This document shows, piece after piece, positions 7,808 through 32,828 of a stretch of DNA of 42,406 nt; positions within the stretch are counted from its first letter, which is position 1; each line of letters begins with the position of its first letter. Below the pieces are notes generated by a model. That model did no database searches, was not told where the DNA came from, and saw nothing but the letters and a program-made list of their open reading frames with translations. The stretch comes from a virus (Duplodnaviria > Caudoviricetes): positions 1-42,406 of the IMG/VR virus record IMGVR_UViG_3300030372_002592. One strand, written 5' to 3'. A program made the position numbers and the translations under genes.

Positions 7808-8470
7808 TTAGCCTCCTAATGTTGAGTTTAATCTTTTTATTTTATATGGATCAAGCATTCCTGATATTGTGTATGGTATTCCATTAGCACTTTTATCAGT
7901 TACTGCTTCTCTATTTTCAAAAAGATGTGCTACTAATAATTTAATTGCTTGTTTAATTGGTGTTGGTACATCATCTCTACTACTACCATAACCTGCAACA
8001 TAAGTAATTTCATAAGCATTAGCTGTTCTTAAATCACTTGCACTTGGAAATGTTTTACCTCTTTTTAAAACTAAACGACCTGGTTCTGTTTGAGTATCAA
8101 CATGATAATTACTTGTAGCAAATGTTGTTGCTGTATTGTCTTCATCATAATACTTAAAATGTGTAACAGACACTAAAGGTGGTCTAGGTAATACAATATA
8201 ACCTAATGATCTATTAATATCAGGAGCAGTAAAAAAACCCTCAGGATAATATTTATTATCATCAGCATAAGGTAAACCATCCAAACCTAATTTTAATGTT
8301 TGGTTTGTTATTGCTCTACCAGTATATTTCTCAGCAGTAAACTGTGCAGTAGAAATAAGTGCATTTAGATAAGTGTCATCTTCACTCCCATCTATACGCA
8401 AATGTGTTTTTGCTTCTGCTAAAGTTATAGCTGTTTCAGACCAAGCTGTTGATATTGTTAAACCTGCCAT
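7808..8470 (-). CDS. Head-tail connector (HK97 gp6 / phiE125 gp8 family)
   Basis: ITLAEAK.HLRID...DD..L..LI..A...AE.YTGR...Y.AGYG...VP..IKQAI..LVAH.FENRE. Confidence 0.92.
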   Translation of the reverse strand: MAGLTISTAWSETAITLAEAKTHLRIDGSEDDTYLNALISTAQFTAEKYTGRAITNQTLKLGLDGLPYADDNKYYPEGFFTAPDINRSLGYIVLPRPPLVSVTHFKYYDEDNTATTFATSNYHVDTQTEPGRLVLKRGKTFPSASDLRTANAYEITYVAGYGSSRDDVPTPIKQAIKLLVAHLFENREAVTDKSANGIPYTISGMLDPYKIKRLNSTLGG

Positions 8471-8475
8471 GATAA

Positions 8476-8766
8476 TTACTCTCCAAGAGGATCACCAGGT
8501 CTAACACAACTAACACTTATTCTACCATCTGCAGTATCTCTAATAGCATTTAAAAAAGAACCATTATCTACTTTTATAATTACTTCTTGTCCTGCTCCAA
8601 TCATACTTCCTGTATTATCGGCAGTTCCTGCACTACTTGATATAGTAAAGTAAGCATTTTGTGTAGATGCAACTCTTATTAATCCTGATGGTACTACCAA
8701 TGCAGATGTACTAGCACTTGAATTAGTTACTGCTATAGATACTGAATTAACTATTGAATAAATCAT
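8476..8766 (-). CDS. Hypothetical, probable virion structural protein
   Basis: Ser/Thr/Ala-rich, beta-type composition; GGAG RBS; head-neck region. Confidence 0.65.
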   Translation of the reverse strand: MIYSIVNSVSIAVTNSSASTSALVVPSGLIRVASTQNAYFTISSSAGTADNTGSMIGAGQEVIIKVDNGSFLNAIRDTADGRISVSCVRPGDPLGE

Positions 8767-9107: not shown

Positions 9108-9121
9108 AAGTCCTCCTATTT

Positions 9122-9147
9122 AAAATGTGGGGAATTGCTCCCCCACA
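9122..9147 (-). terminator. Intrinsic terminator after capsid/decoration genes
   Basis: TGTGGGGGA-GCAA-TTCCCCACA followed by TTTT on minus strand. Confidence 0.75.
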
Positions 9148-17463: not shown

Positions 17464-17524
17464 TTGACGATTAATAATAATTAATGTAATAATAAAGACA
17501 TGATAACAAAAAAAAACAATGGAG
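17464..17524 (+). promoter_or_regulatory. Sigma70-like early promoter plus conserved leader
   Basis: TTGACG-17-TAATAA(T), then GATAAC-A-rich-AATGGAG. Confidence 0.6.
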
Positions 17525-19314: not shown

Positions 19315-19660
19315 TCCGATACCAAAAGAAAGAAGTGTTCAGATAGCAGACACTATCAGAAAACAGATACCAGCAATATGTCTAATGAGTATGGGTGCCA
19401 ATAAATTTAATTGGATAAAAAACTCACAGAAATATGAAGGTGGTCTTTCTTTTGAATTTCAGAATACTAGCTTAGTCAAGAAAGGCAGAATACACATTCA
19501 GCTTACATGGGCTGATGATTATACTGTCGTACTGGTTGGTATTGATTACAAAAAAGAAAAGATATTTAAAGTTATCAAAGGTGTTTATTTTCCTGAGTTA
19601 GGACAAACACTAGATAAATTAGTGGAATCTGAGCAAACTTTGAAAGCTTGGAAACACTAA
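19298..19660 (+). CDS. Conserved phage hypothetical protein
   Basis: GGAGG RBS before ATG 19298; A.TI..Q...MGA...L...D.Y.V...GVY...L. Confidence 0.75.
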   Translation: MSALGSPIPKERSVQIADTIRKQIPAICLMSMGANKFNWIKNSQKYEGGLSFEFQNTSLVKKGRIHIQLTWADDYTVVLVGIDYKKEKIFKVIKGVYFPELGQTLDKLVESEQTLKAWKH

Positions 19661-20493
19661 GCCTCCTGACCCTCATCATTTTGTTGTGCAGATGGTGAGG
19701 GTTCTTGAAGTTCTTTCTTACACATATCTAACATTTTTTCAGCAGGTTTCTTACCAAGAACACTTCTGATTACTCCTGCTTCTGCCCCACTAAAAACTAA
19801 AGAAATACGATACATGTCTGAATCAGTTCTAGCCATTTGACGTTCTTCTTCTGTCTTTGCTTCCTGTAATTTTCTTTCAAGATTACGTTGTTGTTCAAGA
19901 GCATCAACAGATAATGATTTCATCATTGTACCTCCTGATACTTTGTGTTCTGTAGCTTCAACACTATCTTGTTCTGTATCTGCATCTGTTGGTGTCCATG
20001 CAGTAGAAAACTCTTCATTCTTAAGACTTTCAGGAGCAGGTATATCTTCTAGCAACCTATTTACTTCTACATCAGATAACATCAATGTATCTTGCGCCCA
20101 GTCCAATGCTCCTAGCTTTTCTAAATCTCTCATTACTTGAGCAGTCAATTGTATATCTTCTGAACCTCTAGCCCTGTTATGTCTTAATGTAGATACACGT
20201 CTTTGCTCATCTGTCATTTCTACAAATACAACAGGAATTTTATCCATGTTTAATGCTTGTGATGCTCTCCATCTGTGTTCGCCATCAACTATTTCTTTTG
20301 TTGATTTCTGCACAATTACTGGCTGAGTAAATCCATCTTCTTTCATTGACTTGAGTAATAACTCAAAATCTCTATCTGACTGTCTGTTTGGATTATATGA
20401 ATTAGGTTTTATATCTTTTGGTGATACATACGTGATATTTAAAGTTTCTAGTGTTTTATATTGCTTAGCGACATTTGTTTTAACTTCAGACAT
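19657..20493 (-). CDS. ibrB: IbrB-like ParB/Sulfiredoxin N-terminal domain protein
   Basis: PNSYNPN...LL..S...DGFTQP.IV...EIVDGEHRW...STLRHNRARG. Confidence 0.85.
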   Translation of the reverse strand: MSEVKTNVAKQYKTLETLNITYVSPKDIKPNSYNPNRQSDRDFELLLKSMKEDGFTQPVIVQKSTKEIVDGEHRWRASQALNMDKIPVVFVEMTDEQRRVSTLRHNRARGSEDIQLTAQVMRDLEKLGALDWAQDTLMLSDVEVNRLLEDIPAPESLKNEEFSTAWTPTDADTEQDSVEATEHKVSGGTMMKSLSVDALEQQRNLERKLQEAKTEEERQMARTDSDMYRISLVFSGAEAGVIRSVLGKKPAEKMLDMCKKELQEPSPSAQQNDEGQEA

Positions 20494-21184
20494 AATATTT
20501 ATAATACTCCTTTGATAAAGCTGATGGACTTTTTAAAAATTCCTTATCAGACCAGTTATAATCTAAATAATTTTTATTTTCAACAAACCATCTAGCTTTT
20601 CTATTTTTATTGTTATTGCCAACAATAGATGAATCTGCACCTGCATGATTAACTAAAGATGGCATTGGACACATTGCAGGTATCTTTTGATCAACTAAAA
20701 ACATGGCAAGTCTAGAATCATCCCATTTAAAATTAGGAAGTATATGATTTCTCTCCCATTTCAAAAACTTTGCAATCATAGATTGTGGCAATACGATGGC
20801 TTGACCCCATGTTCCATCAGGTATTTGACACCATCTTTTATCTTGATTTTTAGCTTCTTCACATATTTTTCTATTTGCATACAACCCAAGAGGGTGTTCA
20901 GGATATGTTTCAATACATTTCTTGACAGTCTGCACAAATTGTTCACAAAGTTCTACATCATCTTGAATAACTAAATGATGTGTAGATTTTGTTGATAACC
21001 CCCACATCCAGCATTGTCTTGCATTATACCAAACTCCCTTTTGATACCAATCTGCAAATATCTTGAAATCTTCAACCTCTTGTTGTATAGTACGCACCGA
21101 AATTTTATTTATCATGTATTCTACATGGTGTCGTCTTCCAATAAAAGCAGGAGTGTGCATTATGGCAATACTAAGACGTATCAT
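20486..21184 (-). CDS. Putative GT-A fold glycosyltransferase
   Basis: IAIMH.P...R, HHLVIQDDV.LC..F acidic motif, WGQA, PSLVNH....SIVG. Confidence 0.7.
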   Translation of the reverse strand: MIRLSIAIMHTPAFIGRRHHVEYMINKISVRTIQQEVEDFKIFADWYQKGVWYNARQCWMWGLSTKSTHHLVIQDDVELCEQFVQTVKKCIETYPEHPLGLYANRKICEEAKNQDKRWCQIPDGTWGQAIVLPQSMIAKFLKWERNHILPNFKWDDSRLAMFLVDQKIPAMCPMPSLVNHAGADSSIVGNNNKNRKARWFVENKNYLDYNWSDKEFLKSPSALSKEYYKYYV

Positions 21185-21471
21185 TTTTTTGCCTTATTTA
21201 TCAATAATTGTTTAGGTCTATTTATTTGAGTTATCCAATATTTGTAATCACCTGAATAATAATATCGGTAAGTTCTATTGCCATATTTTTCATCTTTACC
21301 ATAATATTCAATGACTTGCAGACAGAACTCCCACATAAAATAATCTTTACATTCTAATCTTTTTGACCACCAATGAGGTGCAGTTTTTTCATATGACTTA
21401 GCCCACTTCCAATTTAGTTTATCAAAGCATCTACCGATACCTGTGGTCACCATGTTGGTTTTCCACCCCAA
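21181..21471 (-). CDS. Conserved aromatic-rich hypothetical protein
   Basis: WKWAKSY...PHWW...Y.Y...YKYW...LINKA; overlaps both neighbours. Confidence 0.7.
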   Translation of the reverse strand: MGWKTNMVTTGIGRCFDKLNWKWAKSYEKTAPHWWSKRLECKDYFMWEFCLQVIEYYGKDEKYGNRTYRYYYSGDYKYWITQINRPKQLLINKAKK

Positions 21472-22580
21472 GTCCCTGCACCTTTTCTAAAAAATTCAGG
21501 TTCTATGTTAGGAAGTAAACCATCTGTCTTCAAAGAAAAAGGGTCACCATTCCAAAGAGCATGAGCAAGATTCCTCCATGAACCTAATGTTCTTGACGTT
21601 CTTTCTGCTATCTTCTCAGGAAATGGATTGCTTGATACATTTGAATGTCTTTTTAGTAAACTATCTCTGACAATAATTGCTCTTTCTTTTATCCAATCAG
21701 GAGCATCATCAATACACTCTCTATGAAAACAATCTCTCCATGTTTCACCTAATTTTCTTGTAGGTGTGACTGCATGTTTTCCAAATTGTGCTGCAGTTTT
21801 GACACCAGGCAGACGTACACAAACTTGATCAAACCATTTAGGAAAAGCTTTTGCACCAAGTTCTAAATCTTTTATTCCTGCTTGGCTCATTGTTGGTGGT
21901 GCTATTCTCATTTTTGCTCTACTTCTCCCCATACGATGCATGTCATCATAAGCTGAACAATAATCCCAACCATAATCAAACATAGCTTTCCAAACATCTC
22001 CAGTAGTCCAATCATATATTGGTCTTGCACTAGCATATCCTTTATTGGGTTTCGTGACAAAATTTTTAGAAGAAAACAAACCCATACGTCTATTTGGACT
22101 TTCTTCTACTCTTAATCCTGTGACTGCATAAGTAATCTTACCATCATCTGTAGGAAATCTATCTTTTGTAATTAATGCTCCAATATGTTTTTCAGGAATA
22201 GACTCTGCATAAGATGGTGGTGTTCTTACCCATTGTTCTTTTGGTAAGGATGGGTCCATAACCCAAAAATAAGGACTTTCACGATTAAAGATGTTTATGA
22301 TAGGTTGATGTGCTACAAGCCAATGAAAGCTTACCTCAGGACGTTTAGCGACCCTTTCACAATACTCAAAGGTTCCAGGAAACATTATTTCCTCATCACG
22401 CATAACTACATCTACTGGCAGATTACCAGTTTTTTTTGCAGCAAGTATACAAAGTTCAAGACATATCGTACTATCTTTTCCTCCACTAAAAGAAACAACT
22501 ACTTTGTGTCCTGCATTGTATAAACTTTCTATTCTTTGAACTGCAGCACTAAAAACATTTAGATTGAGATATTTCTTCAC
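21447..22580 (-). CDS. ibrA: IbrA-like PAPS-reductase-family (PP-loop) protein
   Basis: NV..AA..RI, VSFSGGKDS, WVR.PP, GLR.EES.NR, PIYDW...DVW, MRI.PP, R.PGV. Confidence 0.88.
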   Translation of the reverse strand: MKKYLNLNVFSAAVQRIESLYNAGHKVVVSFSGGKDSTICLELCILAAKKTGNLPVDVVMRDEEIMFPGTFEYCERVAKRPEVSFHWLVAHQPIINIFNRESPYFWVMDPSLPKEQWVRTPPSYAESIPEKHIGALITKDRFPTDDGKITYAVTGLRVEESPNRRMGLFSSKNFVTKPNKGYASARPIYDWTTGDVWKAMFDYGWDYCSAYDDMHRMGRSRAKMRIAPPTMSQAGIKDLELGAKAFPKWFDQVCVRLPGVKTAAQFGKHAVTPTRKLGETWRDCFHRECIDDAPDWIKERAIIVRDSLLKRHSNVSSNPFPEKIAERTSRTLGSWRNLAHALWNGDPFSLKTDGLLPNIEPEFFRKGAGTWGGKPTW

Positions 22581-22693
22581 CAGCTAAACCTCATGTATTC
22601 TAAAATCTCAATGACCATGATTATTCCTAATTCAACTGCAAGTATTGTATGATATAGATGCCACACCAAACCTCTTGTTTTTAATTTTTTCAT
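22577..22693 (-). CDS. Small membrane protein (38 aa, MKKLKTRGLVWHLYHTILAVELGII...)
   Basis: ATGA and GTGA overlaps with both neighbours. Confidence 0.65.
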   Translation of the reverse strand: MKKLKTRGLVWHLYHTILAVELGIIMVIEILEYMRFSW

Positions 22694-23397
22694 TTTTTTT
22701 CTGCAACTACAATAATATATGCACCGAGATTTGGAAAGTGTTTTGATAAATATTTATCTATTGGTGTAAGTGCATTACAGATTATTTTGCTGTCATGATA
22801 TTTTTTTGAAAGAATATCTAACAATATTGGAAAACCATATATGTTTTTCACATCAAATCCATTTAATAACTTTCTTATAATTTTATCTGTATATAACAAT
22901 TGTGTAGAAATTACACCCTCAGAAAAAGAAACCTGAGATTGAAAATATGCCCACTTTGGTGTTAAAGGCATTATAATAAATTTACCTCCTGATACTAAAG
23001 ATTTATAAGAATTATGAATTACTCTTTCAGGTTGTAAACAATATGAAAAAGAACCAAATAAAGATATAATAGAATCATATCCAGTTTCATACACTTTTGG
23101 ATTTGCCATATCACCAACAGAAAATTTAGCCATTGGATATTTATATTCTGCAACATCAATCATTTCTTTTGAAATATCAATACCTTTAAATTTAAAAAAA
23201 GAATCAGGGAACCAATCAAGATAGTTTCCTGTGCCACATCCTAAGTCAAGAACATTACCATCAGGAACATTATTGTTCTTTAGAATTGTTCTAATGTACT
23301 CATTTTCTATCTCACATTTAACTGATGAGTAAATATTATCGTAATTTTTTGCTATCTTAGAATATGCTTGTTTTGGTTTAAGTATTCCCATAACCAT
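22690..23397 (-). CDS. Class I SAM-dependent methyltransferase
   Basis: Y..IA..YD, VLDLGCGTG, GIDIS..MI..A, GDM, L..GGKF. Confidence 0.92.
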   Translation of the reverse strand: MVMGILKPKQAYSKIAKNYDNIYSSVKCEIENEYIRTILKNNNVPDGNVLDLGCGTGNYLDWFPDSFFKFKGIDISKEMIDVAEYKYPMAKFSVGDMANPKVYETGYDSIISLFGSFSYCLQPERVIHNSYKSLVSGGKFIIMPLTPKWAYFQSQVSFSEGVISTQLLYTDKIIRKLLNGFDVKNIYGFPILLDILSKKYHDSKIICNALTPIDKYLSKHFPNLGAYIIVVAEKK

Positions 23398-23848: not shown

Positions 23849-24418
23849 TCATCTATTTATTTTACGTCCTCTCTGATAAACTACTGCTGTCTGCATCTTT
23901 TTTAAAAACTCTTCCCATTCTACTGGGTCTGTTAATTTATTCATTAAGGCATGTCTTTTATCTCTTTCCATTTCTGCGATAAATTTCCACGCATATTTTT
24001 CTAATCTTTGTCTATTGGTTAATTTATTATTTTGATTAACTTTACTCTTATAAAATATATTTGTTCTCTTTGTAATTTGTTTTATTTCCTGACTTATAAT
24101 TTCTGTTTTTACATATTTAACCTTATCCACCTTATCCATAGTATTTTTTGCTATAGTATTATTTAATAAATTATTAGTATTTACTTCTTGGCAAGATTTG
24201 CCATTCAAATGTAATTTATAGATGTTAGTTTTATTTTCTCTTTGTGTCCAAGTAATAACATTCTTATTTCTTAAACTAGCAAGACAACTCTGAACACACC
24301 TTTTGGATAGTTTAGTTTTCATAGCAATGTACTGTATTGAAAAGTACATCTCTTTCATAAAGTTATTGAACTTAATGAAAAAACATAGAACTTTTAAATC
24401 ATTTCCTGAAATATCCAT
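23849..24418 (-). CDS. Putative replication initiator (N-terminal winged HTH)
   Basis: IS...LKV...YFS..YIA..T.LS.R.V...L..L.....I.W..R....N.Y.L. Confidence 0.65.
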   Translation of the reverse strand: MDISGNDLKVLCFFIKFNNFMKEMYFSIQYIAMKTKLSKRCVQSCLASLRNKNVITWTQRENKTNIYKLHLNGKSCQEVNTNNLLNNTIAKNTMDKVDKVKYVKTEIISQEIKQITKRTNIFYKSKVNQNNKLTNRQRLEKYAWKFIAEMERDKRHALMNKLTDPVEWEEFLKKMQTAVVYQRGRKINR

Positions 24419-24474
24419 ATCAAAGATAAACCTCTCAGGAAGTATTATATATCTTTTTTTCTCTTTAATAAAGT

Positions 24475-24753
24475 CTACCTATCGTTTGGGTAGTATGTTT
24501 TACCTACATTATTAAAGATGTTCAATGAATCTCTTCCATATTTATCAGGAAATTCAAAATCCATTGATGAACTATAAGCAACAACGTCAGCTAATTGGCT
24601 CACTTTATCAAACAAACTTGTTGCTGCACTTCTAACATCACCTTTAATTGGAAATGAAACCATGTTATCAGTTGCATCATCAAAATAGTAGAATGCATCC
24701 CTATCTTCATCATACCCAATAACTTCCATTTTTTCTTGGTTAAGTGTTTTCAT
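24475..24753 (-). CDS. Acidic hypothetical protein
   Basis: AAGGAG RBS; own promoter. Confidence 0.75.
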   Translation of the reverse strand: MKTLNQEKMEVIGYDEDRDAFYYFDDATDNMVSFPIKGDVRSAATSLFDKVSQLADVVAYSSSMDFEFPDKYGRDSLNIFNNVGKTYYPNDR

Positions 24754-24758
24754 AAATG

Positions 24759-24803
24759 CTCCTTTGTTATCTATTAATATAGTTATTTCTTTGGAATAGT
24801 CAA
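24759..24803 (-). promoter_or_regulatory. Leftward sigma70-like promoter plus conserved leader
   Basis: TTGACT-16-TATATT then GATAACAAAGGAG on minus strand. Confidence 0.6.
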
Positions 24804-24836
24804 TAATAATTATTATTTATTTTTATTATTTTTTAT

Positions 24837-24888
24837 TTGACATATATGTAGAATAGTTTACAAATATGGATAACAAAAACAATGGAGG
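24837..24888 (+). promoter_or_regulatory. Rightward sigma70-like promoter plus conserved leader (divergent pair)
   Basis: TTGACA-16-TACAAA(T); GATAACAAAAACAATGGAGG. Confidence 0.6.
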
Positions 24889-24893
24889 ACAAA

Positions 24894-25343
24894 ATGGAAA
24901 CATTAAAAGCAACAAAGATAAAGTGGCAGGGTAGTATCTTAAATAGAATAGATGAGCATAGATGCTACAAGAAAGAAAATGAACCTAAGGTTGGAATGGG
25001 GGCTACAGAATATATGTGGACTGATAGACACCCATATTCAGTTATACAGGTTGATAAAAAGTGGAAAGGTAAAAACTTTGATATTGTTGTTATCCAAAGA
25101 GATGATGCAAAAAGAGTAGATAACAATGGTATGAGTGAATCTCAAACTTATGAGTACACACCTAACAAAGATGGTAAAAAGATATATCTTAAGGGTTTAG
25201 AATTTATGCACCCTGATGGTATTCCTGTAAAAGTTTATCATGAAGTAAGGTGGAATGAACAAACAAATCGTTGGAATAAATGTTTATATGGAACAAAAGT
25301 TGGTTTTGGTCATAGACAACATTATCACGATTTTAGCTTTTAG
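24894..25343 (+). CDS. Conserved phage hypothetical protein
   Basis: P.VGMGAT...WTDRHP...Y.D.SF pattern; GGAGG RBS. Confidence 0.8.
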   Translation: METLKATKIKWQGSILNRIDEHRCYKKENEPKVGMGATEYMWTDRHPYSVIQVDKKWKGKNFDIVVIQRDDAKRVDNNGMSESQTYEYTPNKDGKKIYLKGLEFMHPDGIPVKVYHEVRWNEQTNRWNKCLYGTKVGFGHRQHYHDFSF

Positions 25344-25351
25344 GAGGATAT

Positions 25352-25663
25352 ATGGGATATAGTTCAAAACGATTAGAGTTATATGATAATGATATTGGTA
25401 AAAAAGTTTTTACCATAAAAGAAGAAAAAACAATTGTCATTGAATATCAAATCAAAGCAAAAGATGAAGATGAAGCATTCGATAAATGGTTAGATGCTCC
25501 AAAAGATGAAACAATGGAAGACCACAAAGTAAGGGATAATAGTGATGACGTTGTTTGTACTTATGCAAAAGAATATAGTGACCTAAAAGAAGGTACGAGA
25601 GAATTAGGTACTATAAAAAGAGAAGACCCCGATGATGAAGAAAGTGATTTGGAGGTAGCTTGA
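25352..25663 (+). CDS. Acidic hypothetical protein
   Basis: AGGAGG RBS; I.AKDEDEA motif resembling 18033-18191. Confidence 0.75.
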   Translation: MGYSSKRLELYDNDIGKKVFTIKEEKTIVIEYQIKAKDEDEAFDKWLDAPKDETMEDHKVRDNSDDVVCTYAKEYSDLKEGTRELGTIKREDPDDEESDLEVA

Positions 25664-25857
25664 AAGATTTTGTTATTGTGAAAATTAAAAAGAAAACAAT
25701 ATCAAAAGCATATAACCAATTTAGATTGCTTAAAATTATTGGCTCATCTGTAGTACAAAAAGGTGAGCCATATAATCAATTGATTAATGAAATCAAGTCA
25801 AGTGTTATAAAAAAACAGTCTATTTGGTCAAAAATTAAAAATTTCTTGACATTTTAA
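25660..25857 (+). CDS. Hypothetical basic protein
   Basis: GGAGG RBS, TTG start overlapping upstream TGA. Confidence 0.6.
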   Translation: MKDFVIVKIKKKTISKAYNQFRLLKIIGSSVVQKGEPYNQLINEIKSSVIKKQSIWSKIKNFLTF

Positions 25858-25875
25858 AAAGTATTTTGTTATTAT
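25846..25875 (+). promoter_or_regulatory. Extended -10 sigma70-like promoter in front of a non-coding structured region
   Basis: TTGACA-18-TATTAT with TGn extension. Confidence 0.6.
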
Positions 25876-25880
25876 AAATC

Positions 25881-26005
25881 TTGGTGTGGACAGTCCACCA
25901 AAATTCATAAATGTAATGCAGGTGTGAGGTATCAGTAATGATCTCAATAGGTTAGTCGGACATCCCTTGTCCAACTCCATTACCTATGTTAGCACCTGCA
26001 TACTT
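25881..26005 (+). ncRNA. Candidate structured small RNA (5' hairpin plus multi-stem domain)
   Basis: GC-rich relative to flanks; stems TTGGTG/CACCAA, ATGCAGGTG/CACCTGCAT, GAG..ATCA-GTAA-TGAT.CTC, ATAGGT/ACCTAT, GGACA/TGTCC. Confidence 0.6.
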
Positions 26006-26030
26006 TATCATGAATAATTAATTTTAATCA

Positions 26031-26083
26031 TTGACAATCATTTTTTTATTCGTAAAGGTAAAGATAACAGAAAACTAATGGAG
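26031..26083 (+). promoter_or_regulatory. Sigma70-like promoter plus conserved leader
   Basis: TTGACA at 26031; GATAACAGAAAACTAATGGAG. Confidence 0.55.
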
Positions 26084-26088
26084 AAAAG

Positions 26089-26583
26089 ATGAATATATTT
26101 CATTTAGATAATGACCCAAGAACTTGTGCAGAATATCATTGTGATAAACATGTTTGTAAGATGATAGTAGAAACAACTCAAATGTTATGTACTGCCTATC
26201 AAAGATACAATGGTCGTGATGAAAGACTTTACAAGATAGGATTTAAGAACCATCCTATGACCCTTTGGGTTGGAAATTCATTCAAACATTATGCTTGGAC
26301 TATACGATTATTATATTTTTTATTAGAAGAGTATAAAAAAAGATATGGTAAGATACATAAATCAAACAAAGAGTTTGAGATACTTACAAGTATTGATTAC
26401 TTTCCAAAAATGAGTTGTCTTATGCCTTGTCATTATGAGATACCACCTCTTTGTATGCCTGACAAATACAAAAACAATCATGATTATATAAAAGCATATC
26501 GTGATTATTATATTGGTGATAAAAGCTATTTTGCCAAATGGAAATTTACAGAAACACCAACATGGTATAGATATGCAGGGTAA
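26089..26583 (+). CDS. Pyrimidine-dimer DNA glycosylase / endonuclease V (T4 DenV-like family)
   Basis: MNIF.LD.DP..CA.YHCDKHV.KMI.E..QML.TA...NHP...W...EY..RYGK.H...CMPD.Y...AYR.YY. Confidence 0.8.
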   Translation: MNIFHLDNDPRTCAEYHCDKHVCKMIVETTQMLCTAYQRYNGRDERLYKIGFKNHPMTLWVGNSFKHYAWTIRLLYFLLEEYKKRYGKIHKSNKEFEILTSIDYFPKMSCLMPCHYEIPPLCMPDKYKNNHDYIKAYRDYYIGDKSYFAKWKFTETPTWYRYAG

Positions 26584-26968
26584 GTTTGATTTTGATGATA
26601 TAGGAAAAGCATTATTTGACATGGATAAATATCCACATAAAGCTGGTCATAGAGGTGTAAGAACATCAAAGCAATCTGCTGACGAAATAAATCCTAAGTT
26701 AAGTAGATTACAAAAGATGGTCTTGATTGAATTAGAAAAAGTATATCCTGATGGACTTAATACTTCTGAGTTAGCAAATAGAACTAATAAAAATTTATTG
26801 ACTATCAGACCAAGAACAACAGAACTTAAATTATTAGGTGCAATAATAGATACAGAAACCACTAGAAAAAACGATGGTGGTAAAGCTGAAATAGTATATA
26901 AACTGAGGTCTAAGGATATATTAAAGTTGATTGATTATTATGGCATCAAAGAATTTAATAAGAAGTAA
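26573..26968 (+). CDS. Winged-helix DNA-binding protein
   Basis: TS..SA...VL..L...GL...ELA......IRPR.TEL...G.I.D...R; start uncertain. Confidence 0.7.
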   Translation: MQGKFDFDDIGKALFDMDKYPHKAGHRGVRTSKQSADEINPKLSRLQKMVLIELEKVYPDGLNTSELANRTNKNLLTIRPRTTELKLLGAIIDTETTRKNDGGKAEIVYKLRSKDILKLIDYYGIKEFNKK

Positions 26969-27260
26969 AACTCACCTTAAATTTGTATCAGAACAACCCT
27001 GTATAATTTGCTCAAGACCTGACGTACAATCAGCACATATAAGATTTGCAGGTGCAGGTATTGGTATGAAACCATCTGACCATTATGTAGTTCCTTTATG
27101 TATTGACCATCACTCAGAACAGCATCGTATGAACGAACGTATGTTTTGGCATTTATACAAAAAAGACCCATTGGTATATGCTTTTTTCTTTTGTCTACAA
27201 TCACCTGATAAAAAGATAAAGAAATCAAGTTTTGATAAATTCAGGAACTTCTTTGAATGA
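26940..27260 (+). CDS. DUF968-like Zn-binding HNH-related protein
   Basis: HL.FV..QPCIIC...AHIR...G.G.KPSD...VPLC..HH.EQH. Confidence 0.8.
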   Translation: MASKNLIRSKTHLKFVSEQPCIICSRPDVQSAHIRFAGAGIGMKPSDHYVVPLCIDHHSEQHRMNERMFWHLYKKDPLVYAFFFCLQSPDKKIKKSSFDKFRNFFE

Positions 27261-27472
27261 AAATAATTATTCTAGTCCTTTTGTTTAATGGTGATTTAGA
27301 ACAAAGAGTATACAAAATAAACCCAAAATGGACTACATGTAGTACATTTGCAGAACAATACTACAACAAAAATGCAACACACCATTGGGATATAGATGGA
27401 GATAGAACAAAACAAGGTTTCTACTTGAAAGATGGAACTGGCACTTTACAGGGATATATATGTAAATACTAA
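27257..27472 (+). CDS. Hypothetical protein
   Basis: ATGA coupling; hydrophobic N-terminus and Cys pair. Confidence 0.65.
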   Translation: MKIIILVLLFNGDLEQRVYKINPKWTTCSTFAEQYYNKNATHHWDIDGDRTKQGFYLKDGTGTLQGYICKY

Positions 27473-27498
27473 AAAAAAATATTTTTTATTTTTTGCTA

Positions 27499-27578
27499 TT
27501 GACATCTAATAAAAAATGTTTATATTGTCAGCATGTTTAAAAAAAATAAACATATAACACTAACGCAAACAATGGAGG
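27499..27578 (+). promoter_or_regulatory. Sigma70-like promoter plus leader
   Basis: TTGACA-16-TATATT; TAACGCAAACAATGGAGG. Confidence 0.55.
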
Positions 27579-27582
27579 GCTT

Positions 27583-27975
27583 ATGCCACTAGTAAATAGA
27601 TTACCTCAAAGAGTCAATAAATGGCTACAAGAAGGTAAGAAGCTTGGTCTGTTGACAGACAAGCAACAACTTGACTTTATTTCAAAGTATGTAGCTTTGA
27701 GAATGTCAGGAACACCAGTCTTAAGAAGAAGAAGTAAGACTATGGTTGAGGATCAAATTGACAAAGTTATAGATAATTTGATACCTACATATAATACCTT
27801 TGAACTTGATGTTCTTGTAAATGACATAAAGAGAGATGTTCAATATGTCAGCATTACACCATCAATGATTTACCATAGAATACAAAAAAGAGTAGATGCT
27901 GGTAAATTGGATAAGGTTGGAGTAGAGGGTACAAAAAAAGTAATCTATGCTCTTAAAAAAAAACTAAATCAATAA
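27583..27975 (+). CDS. Hypothetical protein, possible C-terminal winged helix
   Basis: GGAGG RBS; IYHRIQK.V..GKL.KV...IY.L. Confidence 0.7.
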   Translation: MPLVNRLPQRVNKWLQEGKKLGLLTDKQQLDFISKYVALRMSGTPVLRRRSKTMVEDQIDKVIDNLIPTYNTFELDVLVNDIKRDVQYVSITPSMIYHRIQKRVDAGKLDKVGVEGTKKVIYALKKKLNQ

Positions 27976-28032
27976 TTTACTAATAAAAATAATTAGTATA
28001 TAGTGATTGGTAATAACAAGAAAGGTGAACAC

Positions 28033-28983: not shown

Positions 28984-29019
28984 TTTATATTATATTTTAC
29001 TGATAACAAAAAAATGGAG
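28970..29019 (+). promoter_or_regulatory. Sigma70-like promoter plus conserved leader
   Basis: TTGACA-17-TATTTT; GATAACAAAAAAATGGAG. Confidence 0.6.
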
Positions 29020-29434: not shown

Positions 29435-29780
29435 ACATGCAGAAGATATAAAAGAAATATGTCATAATACTGTAAGAAAACTTGAGGGTGATGATTATTC
29501 TCTAGGTACTGTTGGTCTATTAAAACAAGCATTTAAAGTTCTTGATAAATCACCAATAACTACTCAGATGAATAATGACCATTGGCAAAAAGTTTTAGAT
29601 ATGACTCATGATTTAAGAGAACATATTTATAAATATACGTCATTTATAAGTATGATACAGATTAGATATACAAGTGAAAATGCTAATATCAAAAACCTTG
29701 ACAAAGTTATTGAACAAGCTAATCTAAATATAGAACGAGATACTGGATTACCAGTAGATAACAAAAAAGATGGAGAATAA
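29385..29780 (+). CDS. Hypothetical protein
   Basis: AAGGAG RBS; coupled to next gene. Confidence 0.7.
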   Translation: MTNKPKMEKQTSKELNRHAEDIKEICHNTVRKLEGDDYSLGTVGLLKQAFKVLDKSPITTQMNNDHWQKVLDMTHDLREHIYKYTSFISMIQIRYTSENANIKNLDKVIEQANLNIERDTGLPVDNKKDGE

Positions 29781-32775: not shown

Positions 32776-32828
32776 TTGACAAAGGTTTTTGATTGTGGTA
32801 CTCTATAGGATAACTAAATAAATGGAGG
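32776..32828 (+). promoter_or_regulatory. Extended -10 sigma70-like promoter plus conserved leader
   Basis: TTGACA-17-TACTCT with TGn; GATAACTAAATAAATGGAGG. Confidence 0.65.

Follow-up and report, generated by a model that had tools for sequence, protein, structure and literature searches.

The phage analysed here carries, ahead of a gene of the pyrimidine dimer DNA glycosylase family, a structured RNA whose anatomy, as read from its letters and predicted fold, appears to match that of the c4/CI antisense RNAs, as a variant that is not identical to the known ones. This RNA likely represses many early leaders together, a reading to which we give a probability of about 0.6. The window, that is the whole stretch of DNA that was analysed, is the whole virus record: it has 42.4 kb and 31.9% G+C, is rated 90% complete and contains genes encoding an HK97-type capsid, a terminase, a Rad52-like recombinase and an XRE regulator. 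The sequencing runs holding the RNA region are marine metagenomes. A close cultured relative was not found for the capsid, the terminase or the recombinase. Since an oxygenase of the tail region shows 66% and 59% identity to the oxygenases of two pelagiphages, and the three best matches of the XRE protein are all from pelagiphages, the host of the window phage and its relatives is probably SAR11. No tyrosine integrase (PF00589) was found in 21 related records, a single one of which is 90% complete. On the minus strand, positions 19657-23397 contain a cassette of four genes, encoding a ParB-like protein, an unknown protein, a PAPS-reductase (DndC-like) and a methyltransferase, which is probably a DNA modification cassette.

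The structured RNA is a real feature (Table 1). The preliminary description of this region had read in it a gap free of sizeable ORFs that holds a promoter, a 5' hairpin and a domain of three stems, and all of these are found where it placed them. The gap between the window ORFs extends from 25857 to 26089. The RNA promoter scores 11/12 and is the top of the 22 promoter-like sites within 24000-28000, where shuffles give a mean of 27.1 sites. The region 25875-26010 folds at -40.7 kcal/mol (z -4.42; 0/200 shuffles fold as well) into a structure that contains the stems named before, P1 (25916-24/25993-26001), P2 and P3, and the homologues confirm all helices. The words GTAATG (25935 and 25913) and CATTAC (25978) are also present; the alternative fold or pseudoknot proposed from them is not a family feature, since a 6-bp pairing of this type is possible in only 2/45 representatives. 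On the 5' side, a 65-codon ORF (25660-25857), coupled to the upstream gene, ends within the RNA promoter and is missing from the close relatives L370 and L405. Elsewhere in the window, a small hairpin of H1-like shape, a weak match only, is located on the minus strand between two head genes (9108-9146).

Table 1. Parts of the RNA locus and predicted target leaders, in positions of the window
Feature	Position	Strand	Basis
RNA promoter, sigma-70-type: TTGACA 25846-51, 18-nt spacer, TG-n-TATTAT 25870-75	25846..25875	+	
5' hairpin H1: 5-6 bp, 1-nt bulge, 2 bp, NCAA-type loop	25881..25902	+	
c4-like three-way junction, closing stem P1 25916-25925/25992-26001	25916..26001	+	fold, covariation
P2: 4 bp, 2-nt bulge, 3 bp, GYAA tetraloop	25926..25945	+	
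P3 25947-52/25982-87, internal loop, distal P4 hairpin 25958-62/25968-72	25947..25987	+	
b'-like anti-Shine-Dalgarno segment CUCCAUU, complement of AAUGGAG in early leaders	25975..25981	+	
a'-like junction strand GUUA (within UGUUAR), complement of early-leader UAAC	25988..25991	+	
Downstream-operon promoter: TTGACA, 16 nt, TAAAGG; missed by the strict promoter scan	26031..26058	+	
Adjacent gene, pyrimidine dimer DNA glycosylase family, PF03013	26089..26583	+	
Predicted target leader behind promoter 17464	17504..17524	+	
Predicted target leader behind promoter 24837	24871..24887	+	
Predicted target leader of the adjacent gene (UAAC ... AAUGGAG)	26065..26083	+	
Predicted target leader behind promoter 27499	27555..27577	+	
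Predicted target leader behind promoter 28970	29004..29019	+	
Predicted target leader behind promoter 29698	29759..29775	+	
Predicted target leader, UAACU variant, gene 32833	32811..32827	+	

Marine siphophages carry at least 82 distinct sequences of the family to which the RNA belongs. Blastn of the RNA region against 50,697 phage records gave short chance matches only, and loose DNA patterns made from two sequences gave only already-known contigs or chance matches. Searches with two neighbouring proteins, the DenV-like protein (80 loci) and the product of gene 24882 (7 loci), yielded only L002, which is a near-identical copy, L013, which is a diverged copy with the same fold, and L012. A second neighbour-protein search, independent of any RNA pattern, gave 20 loci and the RNA in 10 of them within the fetched DNA; these 10 retain the GG/CC of P1, the GYAA loop, CUCC and UGUUAR. 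The pattern used afterwards was derived from these loci and fixed several of the invariant letters, whose invariance is partly by construction. UGUUAR is near-invariant (UGUUAG in 44/46 sequences, UGUUAA in 2/46) and the P2 tetraloop is GTAA in 41 and GCAA in five of the 46. The pattern search found 20 members among 42 loci of viral records and at least 116 members among at least 120 loci of metagenomes, and bacterial and archaeal genomes gave four matches and no member. Three loci with chance matches to a search pattern (L257, L260 and L285) show, upstream of the match, a G+C-rich and apparently structured stretch that is unrelated to the RNA family. Among 28 related records the RNA is present once in 21, and the seven without it are fragments of 15-43%.

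After removal of six N-bearing or incomplete sequences, 45 representatives at less than 97% identity, forming 11 groups at 70%, were compared. Their covariation, which the preliminary description had named as a check, is strong and supports all helices. In the MAFFT alignment, which is not fitted to the structure, 89.2% of cells are paired and 29/40 pairs show two-sided changes; in the model-fitted alignment, fitted to the structure itself, the values are 91.3% and 32/40, and a control with slid partners gives only 39-44% of paired cells. Parsimony on the tree counts 95 Watson-Crick swap steps, with at least two swaps in 24/40 pairs. Two-sided changes are found in 7/7 pairs of H1 in the homologue alignment, and the median folding z across the family is -4.2. 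An RNA on the minus strand is disfavoured, given that the G-U pairs and the GNRA loops fit the plus strand and that the plus strand is more stable in 30/45. A pairing of H1 with the CUCC loop was rejected, as the 5' arm of H1 covaries with its own 3' arm and CUCC is unchanging, and the terminal loop of P4, considered as a guide, is variable and by eye has no consistent complement.

Most members show a promoter-like site ahead of H1 and another behind P1, and in the 45 scored representatives a promoter-like pair is located 107-133 nt from the junction end. The gene 3' of the RNA varies among the homologues, being mostly a small ribbon-helix-helix-like gene or an unknown one, judged by sequence likeness, and in nearly all of them its start is 59-91 nt away. 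Because of the flanking promoters in most members and the varying next gene, the RNA appears to form a transcription unit of its own. This agrees with the earlier view that the downstream gene has a promoter of its own (TTGACA at 26031), which holds as a separate downstream promoter in most homologues. Where the RNA had been proposed to be a stand-alone sRNA, a ribozyme or a protein decoy, the promoters, the varying downstream genes and the covariation support the stand-alone promoter-driven sRNA, and the likeness to c4 and the complementarity to leaders do not favour a ribozyme or a decoy. Among the contigs listed for three RNA sequencing runs, none is on the RNA and the one within the searched 1.3 kb is on the upstream gene, a result that does not imply absence of the transcript.

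The early region differs between clades in several respects. The -35 box of the early promoters is TTTACT or TTTACA in the main clade (L497-L510) and TTGACA in the window and L493-L496, forms that may reflect different host clades, and the early promoters often miss the final T of the -10 box. In most relatives (L304-L320) the early block bearing the RNA and a block with HTH and DUF968 genes are oppositely oriented, and in the window and L013 both blocks are in line, so that the clades differ by an inversion. Between L301 (3314-3769) and the window (24882-25343), phages that are otherwise near-identical, the second gene upstream of the RNA differs in its N-terminal part, which suggests that modules are exchanged at early cassettes.

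No Rfam family was matched at its cut-off, and a search of the window at E up to 10 gave nothing relevant. ARAGORN found no tRNA or tmRNA in the window, in accordance with the first impression that the RNA is no tRNA. The ribozyme and riboswitch models of Rfam gave no match even at E up to 10, and this tells against a self-cleaving ribozyme or a ligand-binding aptamer, which could otherwise be seen in the clustering of about 18 conserved letters at a three-way junction with a GNRA loop; as the complementarity to leaders accounts for the conserved unpaired letters, we consider such a function very improbable. In a low-threshold scan only 5/34 loci, and not the window, match c4-2 (RF02944, clan CL00128; Weinberg 2017, PMC5737381): L367, L408, L457 and L480 with 33.4-35.5 bits (E 2.5e-4 to 3e-3) and L446 with 22.7 bits. 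No family member reaches any Rfam gathering cut-off (41 for c4-2, 45 for C4). The reciprocal search of 121 alphaproteobacterial genomes with the family model gave one match, L488 (30.4 bits, E 8e-4 per genome), which has the junction architecture of the family and weak scores to c4-2 and sRNA-Xcc1, under all Rfam cut-offs. By inspection, L488 (1460-1700) is a c4 cassette of the P1 type, in which the RNA is flanked on both sides by sites complementary to its loops.

The family and c4-2, the best Rfam match of the homologues, share the three-way junction and a P2 of 4 bp, a 2-nt bulge, 3 bp and a GNRA loop, aligned position by position. Unlike c4-2, the family scores under 41 bits, has no internal loop in P1 and shows a longer P3 that includes an internal loop and one more hairpin. 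The available text of PMC5737381 presents c4-2 as a likely distant homologue of an already described RNA. With regard to processing by RNase P at the 5' end of P1, the family shows AUGG at the start of P1 in 6/46 and a distal CCA in 8/46.

The likeness to C4 of P1 and P7 with its a1b1 leader (RF01695) includes the promoter, a 5' hairpin with a loop of the CAAAU type and the P1-P2-P3 junction. The loop of H1 resembles those of the first hairpin in the a1b1 leader of P1 and in the P4 leader, as far as these are given in PMC2864571. In P1, the junction strand serves as a' and the P3 loop as b', and the targets are ahead of the icd start (PMC5320573; PMC8198154); the window RNA likewise has its a' on the junction strand, its b' in a loop of P3 and its putative targets 5' of and on the ribosome-binding site. 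Several features set it apart from P1: the precursor has no copy of a1/b1 (TAAC in 0/45 5' leaders) and retains only a hairpin resembling the first one of a1b1, no a2 directly follows the RNA (TAAC within 20 nt of the P1 end in 5/45), b' is in an internal loop instead of a terminal one, the pairings are of 4-5 and 6-8 bp instead of 7 and 8, and the predicted leaders are many and on separate transcripts, compared with one icd-ant operon. The family gives no score with RF01695, and the family model leaves C4 of P1 unrecognised (4.1 bits). No icd or antirepressor gene was found downstream, this place being taken by the PF03013 glycosylase gene in the window and by other genes in the homologues. 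Because the cut-off score, a1/b1 and a2 on the transcript and a downstream icd-ant are all missing, the RNA was not filed in RF01695 or RF02944. A literature search found no description of it; an IMG/VR screen reports 8,495 unnamed candidate RNAs (PMC10690425), among which the RNA may be included.

The two conserved segments of the RNA that are predicted to be unpaired are complementary to sites in early leaders at the ribosome-binding site. TAACA-N2-12-ATGGAG occurs eight times in the window, seven on the early strand and one as the RNA's own complement, compared with 0.47 expected; six of the seven are in leaders directly behind early promoters and one is in a coding stretch. Of 68 leaders, that of the adjacent gene forms the most favourable duplex (-10.4). 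Both the a' and the b' segment are predicted to be unpaired in the window RNA, as GUUA and the CCAUU of CUCCAUU, and the conserved target word of 4 nt has the length of the unpaired GUUA; in the main clade, the CU of CUCC is predicted to be paired inside P4. Related records show the same leader design, UAAC, an A-rich stretch and GGAG, behind early promoters. In 13 RNA-bearing records, counting GGAG leaders with near-duplicate records excluded, TAAC precedes GGAG in 45/61 promoter-proximal leaders and in 56/195 other leaders (p 5.5e-10); the same count over all 17 records gives 58/82 and 67/249. Other permutations of the letters of TAAC occur in at most 21/61 promoter-proximal leaders. Three pelagiphages without the RNA show TAAC in 4/10 promoter-proximal and 11/85 other leaders, and the promoter-proximal frequency in RNA-bearing phages differs from theirs with a p of only 0.06. 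Since UAAC is also found in leaders of phages without the RNA, it is partly generic, and TAAC may be a generic word of strong leaders.

Better evidence for pairing with leaders than the UAAC word is the match by clade of the CUCC flank. In the window clade (CUCC-AU), the CUCC segment forms 6.75 bp with the AUGGAG leaders of that clade, compared with 4.16 for leaders of the main clade; in the main clade (UCUCC-U), the values are 7.00 bp for cognate leaders and 5.09 for those of the window clade. A third clade (L304) is unspecific, with 6.23 bp to cognate leaders and 6.60 to window-clade leaders. The CUCC flank and the Shine-Dalgarno flank switch together between two clades, which amounts to about one evolutionary split. 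It is this reciprocal match, together with the likeness to an antisense RNA clan, that makes it unlikely in our judgement that the element binds a protein or the RNA polymerase, as a decoy or an antiterminator, with UGUUAR and CUCC as structural or binding motifs and an incidental match to leaders. Such a role would suit the near-invariant UGUUAR, as the a' segments of c4 RNAs vary and so give specificity (PMC5320573), the presence of TAAC in leaders of the control phages, and the GYAA loop and internal loop, which are at a similar distance from the junction and could dock, but no gene for a partner protein travels with the RNA.

According to the preferred reading, repression of early leaders by a c4-like antisense RNA, the RNA would be made from its own promoter-like site, and GUUA of the junction and CUCC with its flank in the P3 loop would pair in the cell with UAAC and GGAG of the early leaders. 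The two short helices would hide the Shine-Dalgarno and so block translation behind most early promoters at once. The purpose may be a shut-off of early genes later in infection, comparable to that by the endoribonuclease RegB of T4, which acts on GGAG of early messages (PMC1702504); RegB is a functional analogue and, unlike the RNA, a protein nuclease, without homology. Alternatively, the RNA could serve a carrier state without integration, in which phages that share a leader type exclude each other from superinfection. Shut-off or a non-integrated carrier state is the more likely since the 21 related records show no tyrosine integrase.

Most relatives have a further feature, an uninterrupted sense frame that extends from the promoter region across both the RNA and the second promoter. 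This is found in 36/44 representatives with enough flank, compared with 2.3 in shuffles. It stops 1-23 nt behind the ATG of the next gene in 32/36, with an ATGA overlap in 12, and at the GG of P1 it is read in one frame by 29 members and in another by seven; none of the 8/8 members of the window's clade has it. As its ATG is upstream of the predicted RNA start, only the longer message is translatable, and as the frames differ among members, it is translation rather than a peptide that appears to be kept. The frame could also be seen as a conserved gene for a small membrane peptide, with the RNA fold as secondary, given that it is open in 36/44, has SD-like letters ahead of the ATG and encodes hydrophobic C-terminal stretches. 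However, the frames, the readings of the 3' junction (two) and the start points all differ, and the eight frameless members of the window's clade keep the base pairing throughout, so that we regard a peptide gene as highly unlikely. In most relatives, ribosomes translating the longer read-through message would likely open the fold of the RNA and then reinitiate at the next gene with no need of the blocked Shine-Dalgarno, an escape route that is missing in the window's clade.

The arrangement is like that of CI in P4, where the ORF that contains a c4-like RNA extends into the following gene (P4 cI CDS 8168-8584, over epsilon) and where translation through the c4-like region overrides immunity. 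As differences, P4 is an integrating element and its CI acts on seqA and seqC of its own transcript; here the clade of the window phage has no such ORF, and no tyrosine integrase was found in the 21 related records. A cis attenuator of the P4 or IsrK style, placed on the read-through message, set in its state by ribosomes on the overlapping ORF and controlling only the next gene or operon, with the other leaders sharing a generic design, would account for the distance of 59-91 nt at which the next gene begins in nearly all members and for the ORFs through the RNA (36/44, 32 of these stopping 1-23 nt behind the next ATG). IsrK of Gifsy-1 is a precedent for one locus serving both as small RNA and as message, according to the available text of PMC4825925, and two loci, L429 and L482, retain the junction and the ORF without H1 or promoter. 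A second promoter is located between the RNA and the next gene in most members, so the gene's own message does not contain the RNA; moreover, the ORF is missing in 8/8 members of the window's clade, and the a-site of the adjacent leader is, in the main clades, often weaker than those of leaders farther away. For these reasons we find an attenuator acting mainly in cis unlikely.

In L429 (1859-1971) and L482 (185-297), the pairs of the junction and the open frame are kept. The junction is placed in an island of 28-30% G+C that resembles a restriction-modification locus, with a divergent C5 methyltransferase gene. A gene encoding a 639-aa PDC-M33A-like protein is 71 nt downstream, and a 45-nt stretch behind the junction repeats part of that gene. 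Possibly, a phage RNA was captured there to regulate a host defence gene.

What is known of c4 and CI RNAs is a role in the immunity of temperate elements of enterobacteria, each acting on a single operon. If a relative of c4 addresses most early leaders of an integrase-less marine phage, as the preferred reading has it, the c4 mechanism would be widened to the scale of a regulon, and the read-through ORF, open in different frames, would be a second, independent design feature. A broader proposal, which we hold only tentatively and consider doubtful, is that the c4-derived RNA is a master switch of the whole early regulon in a widespread clade of integrase-less SAR11 siphophages, with a shared two-part leader code that differs between clades in the manner of immunity groups and a frame-shifting read-through ORF by which an upstream promoter could override the block; if true, phages of the most abundant host in the ocean would have a way to a carrier state and to superinfection exclusion by RNA alone. 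An RNA that targets leaders would offer a concrete handle on the timing and pausing of infection by phages of SAR11-like hosts.
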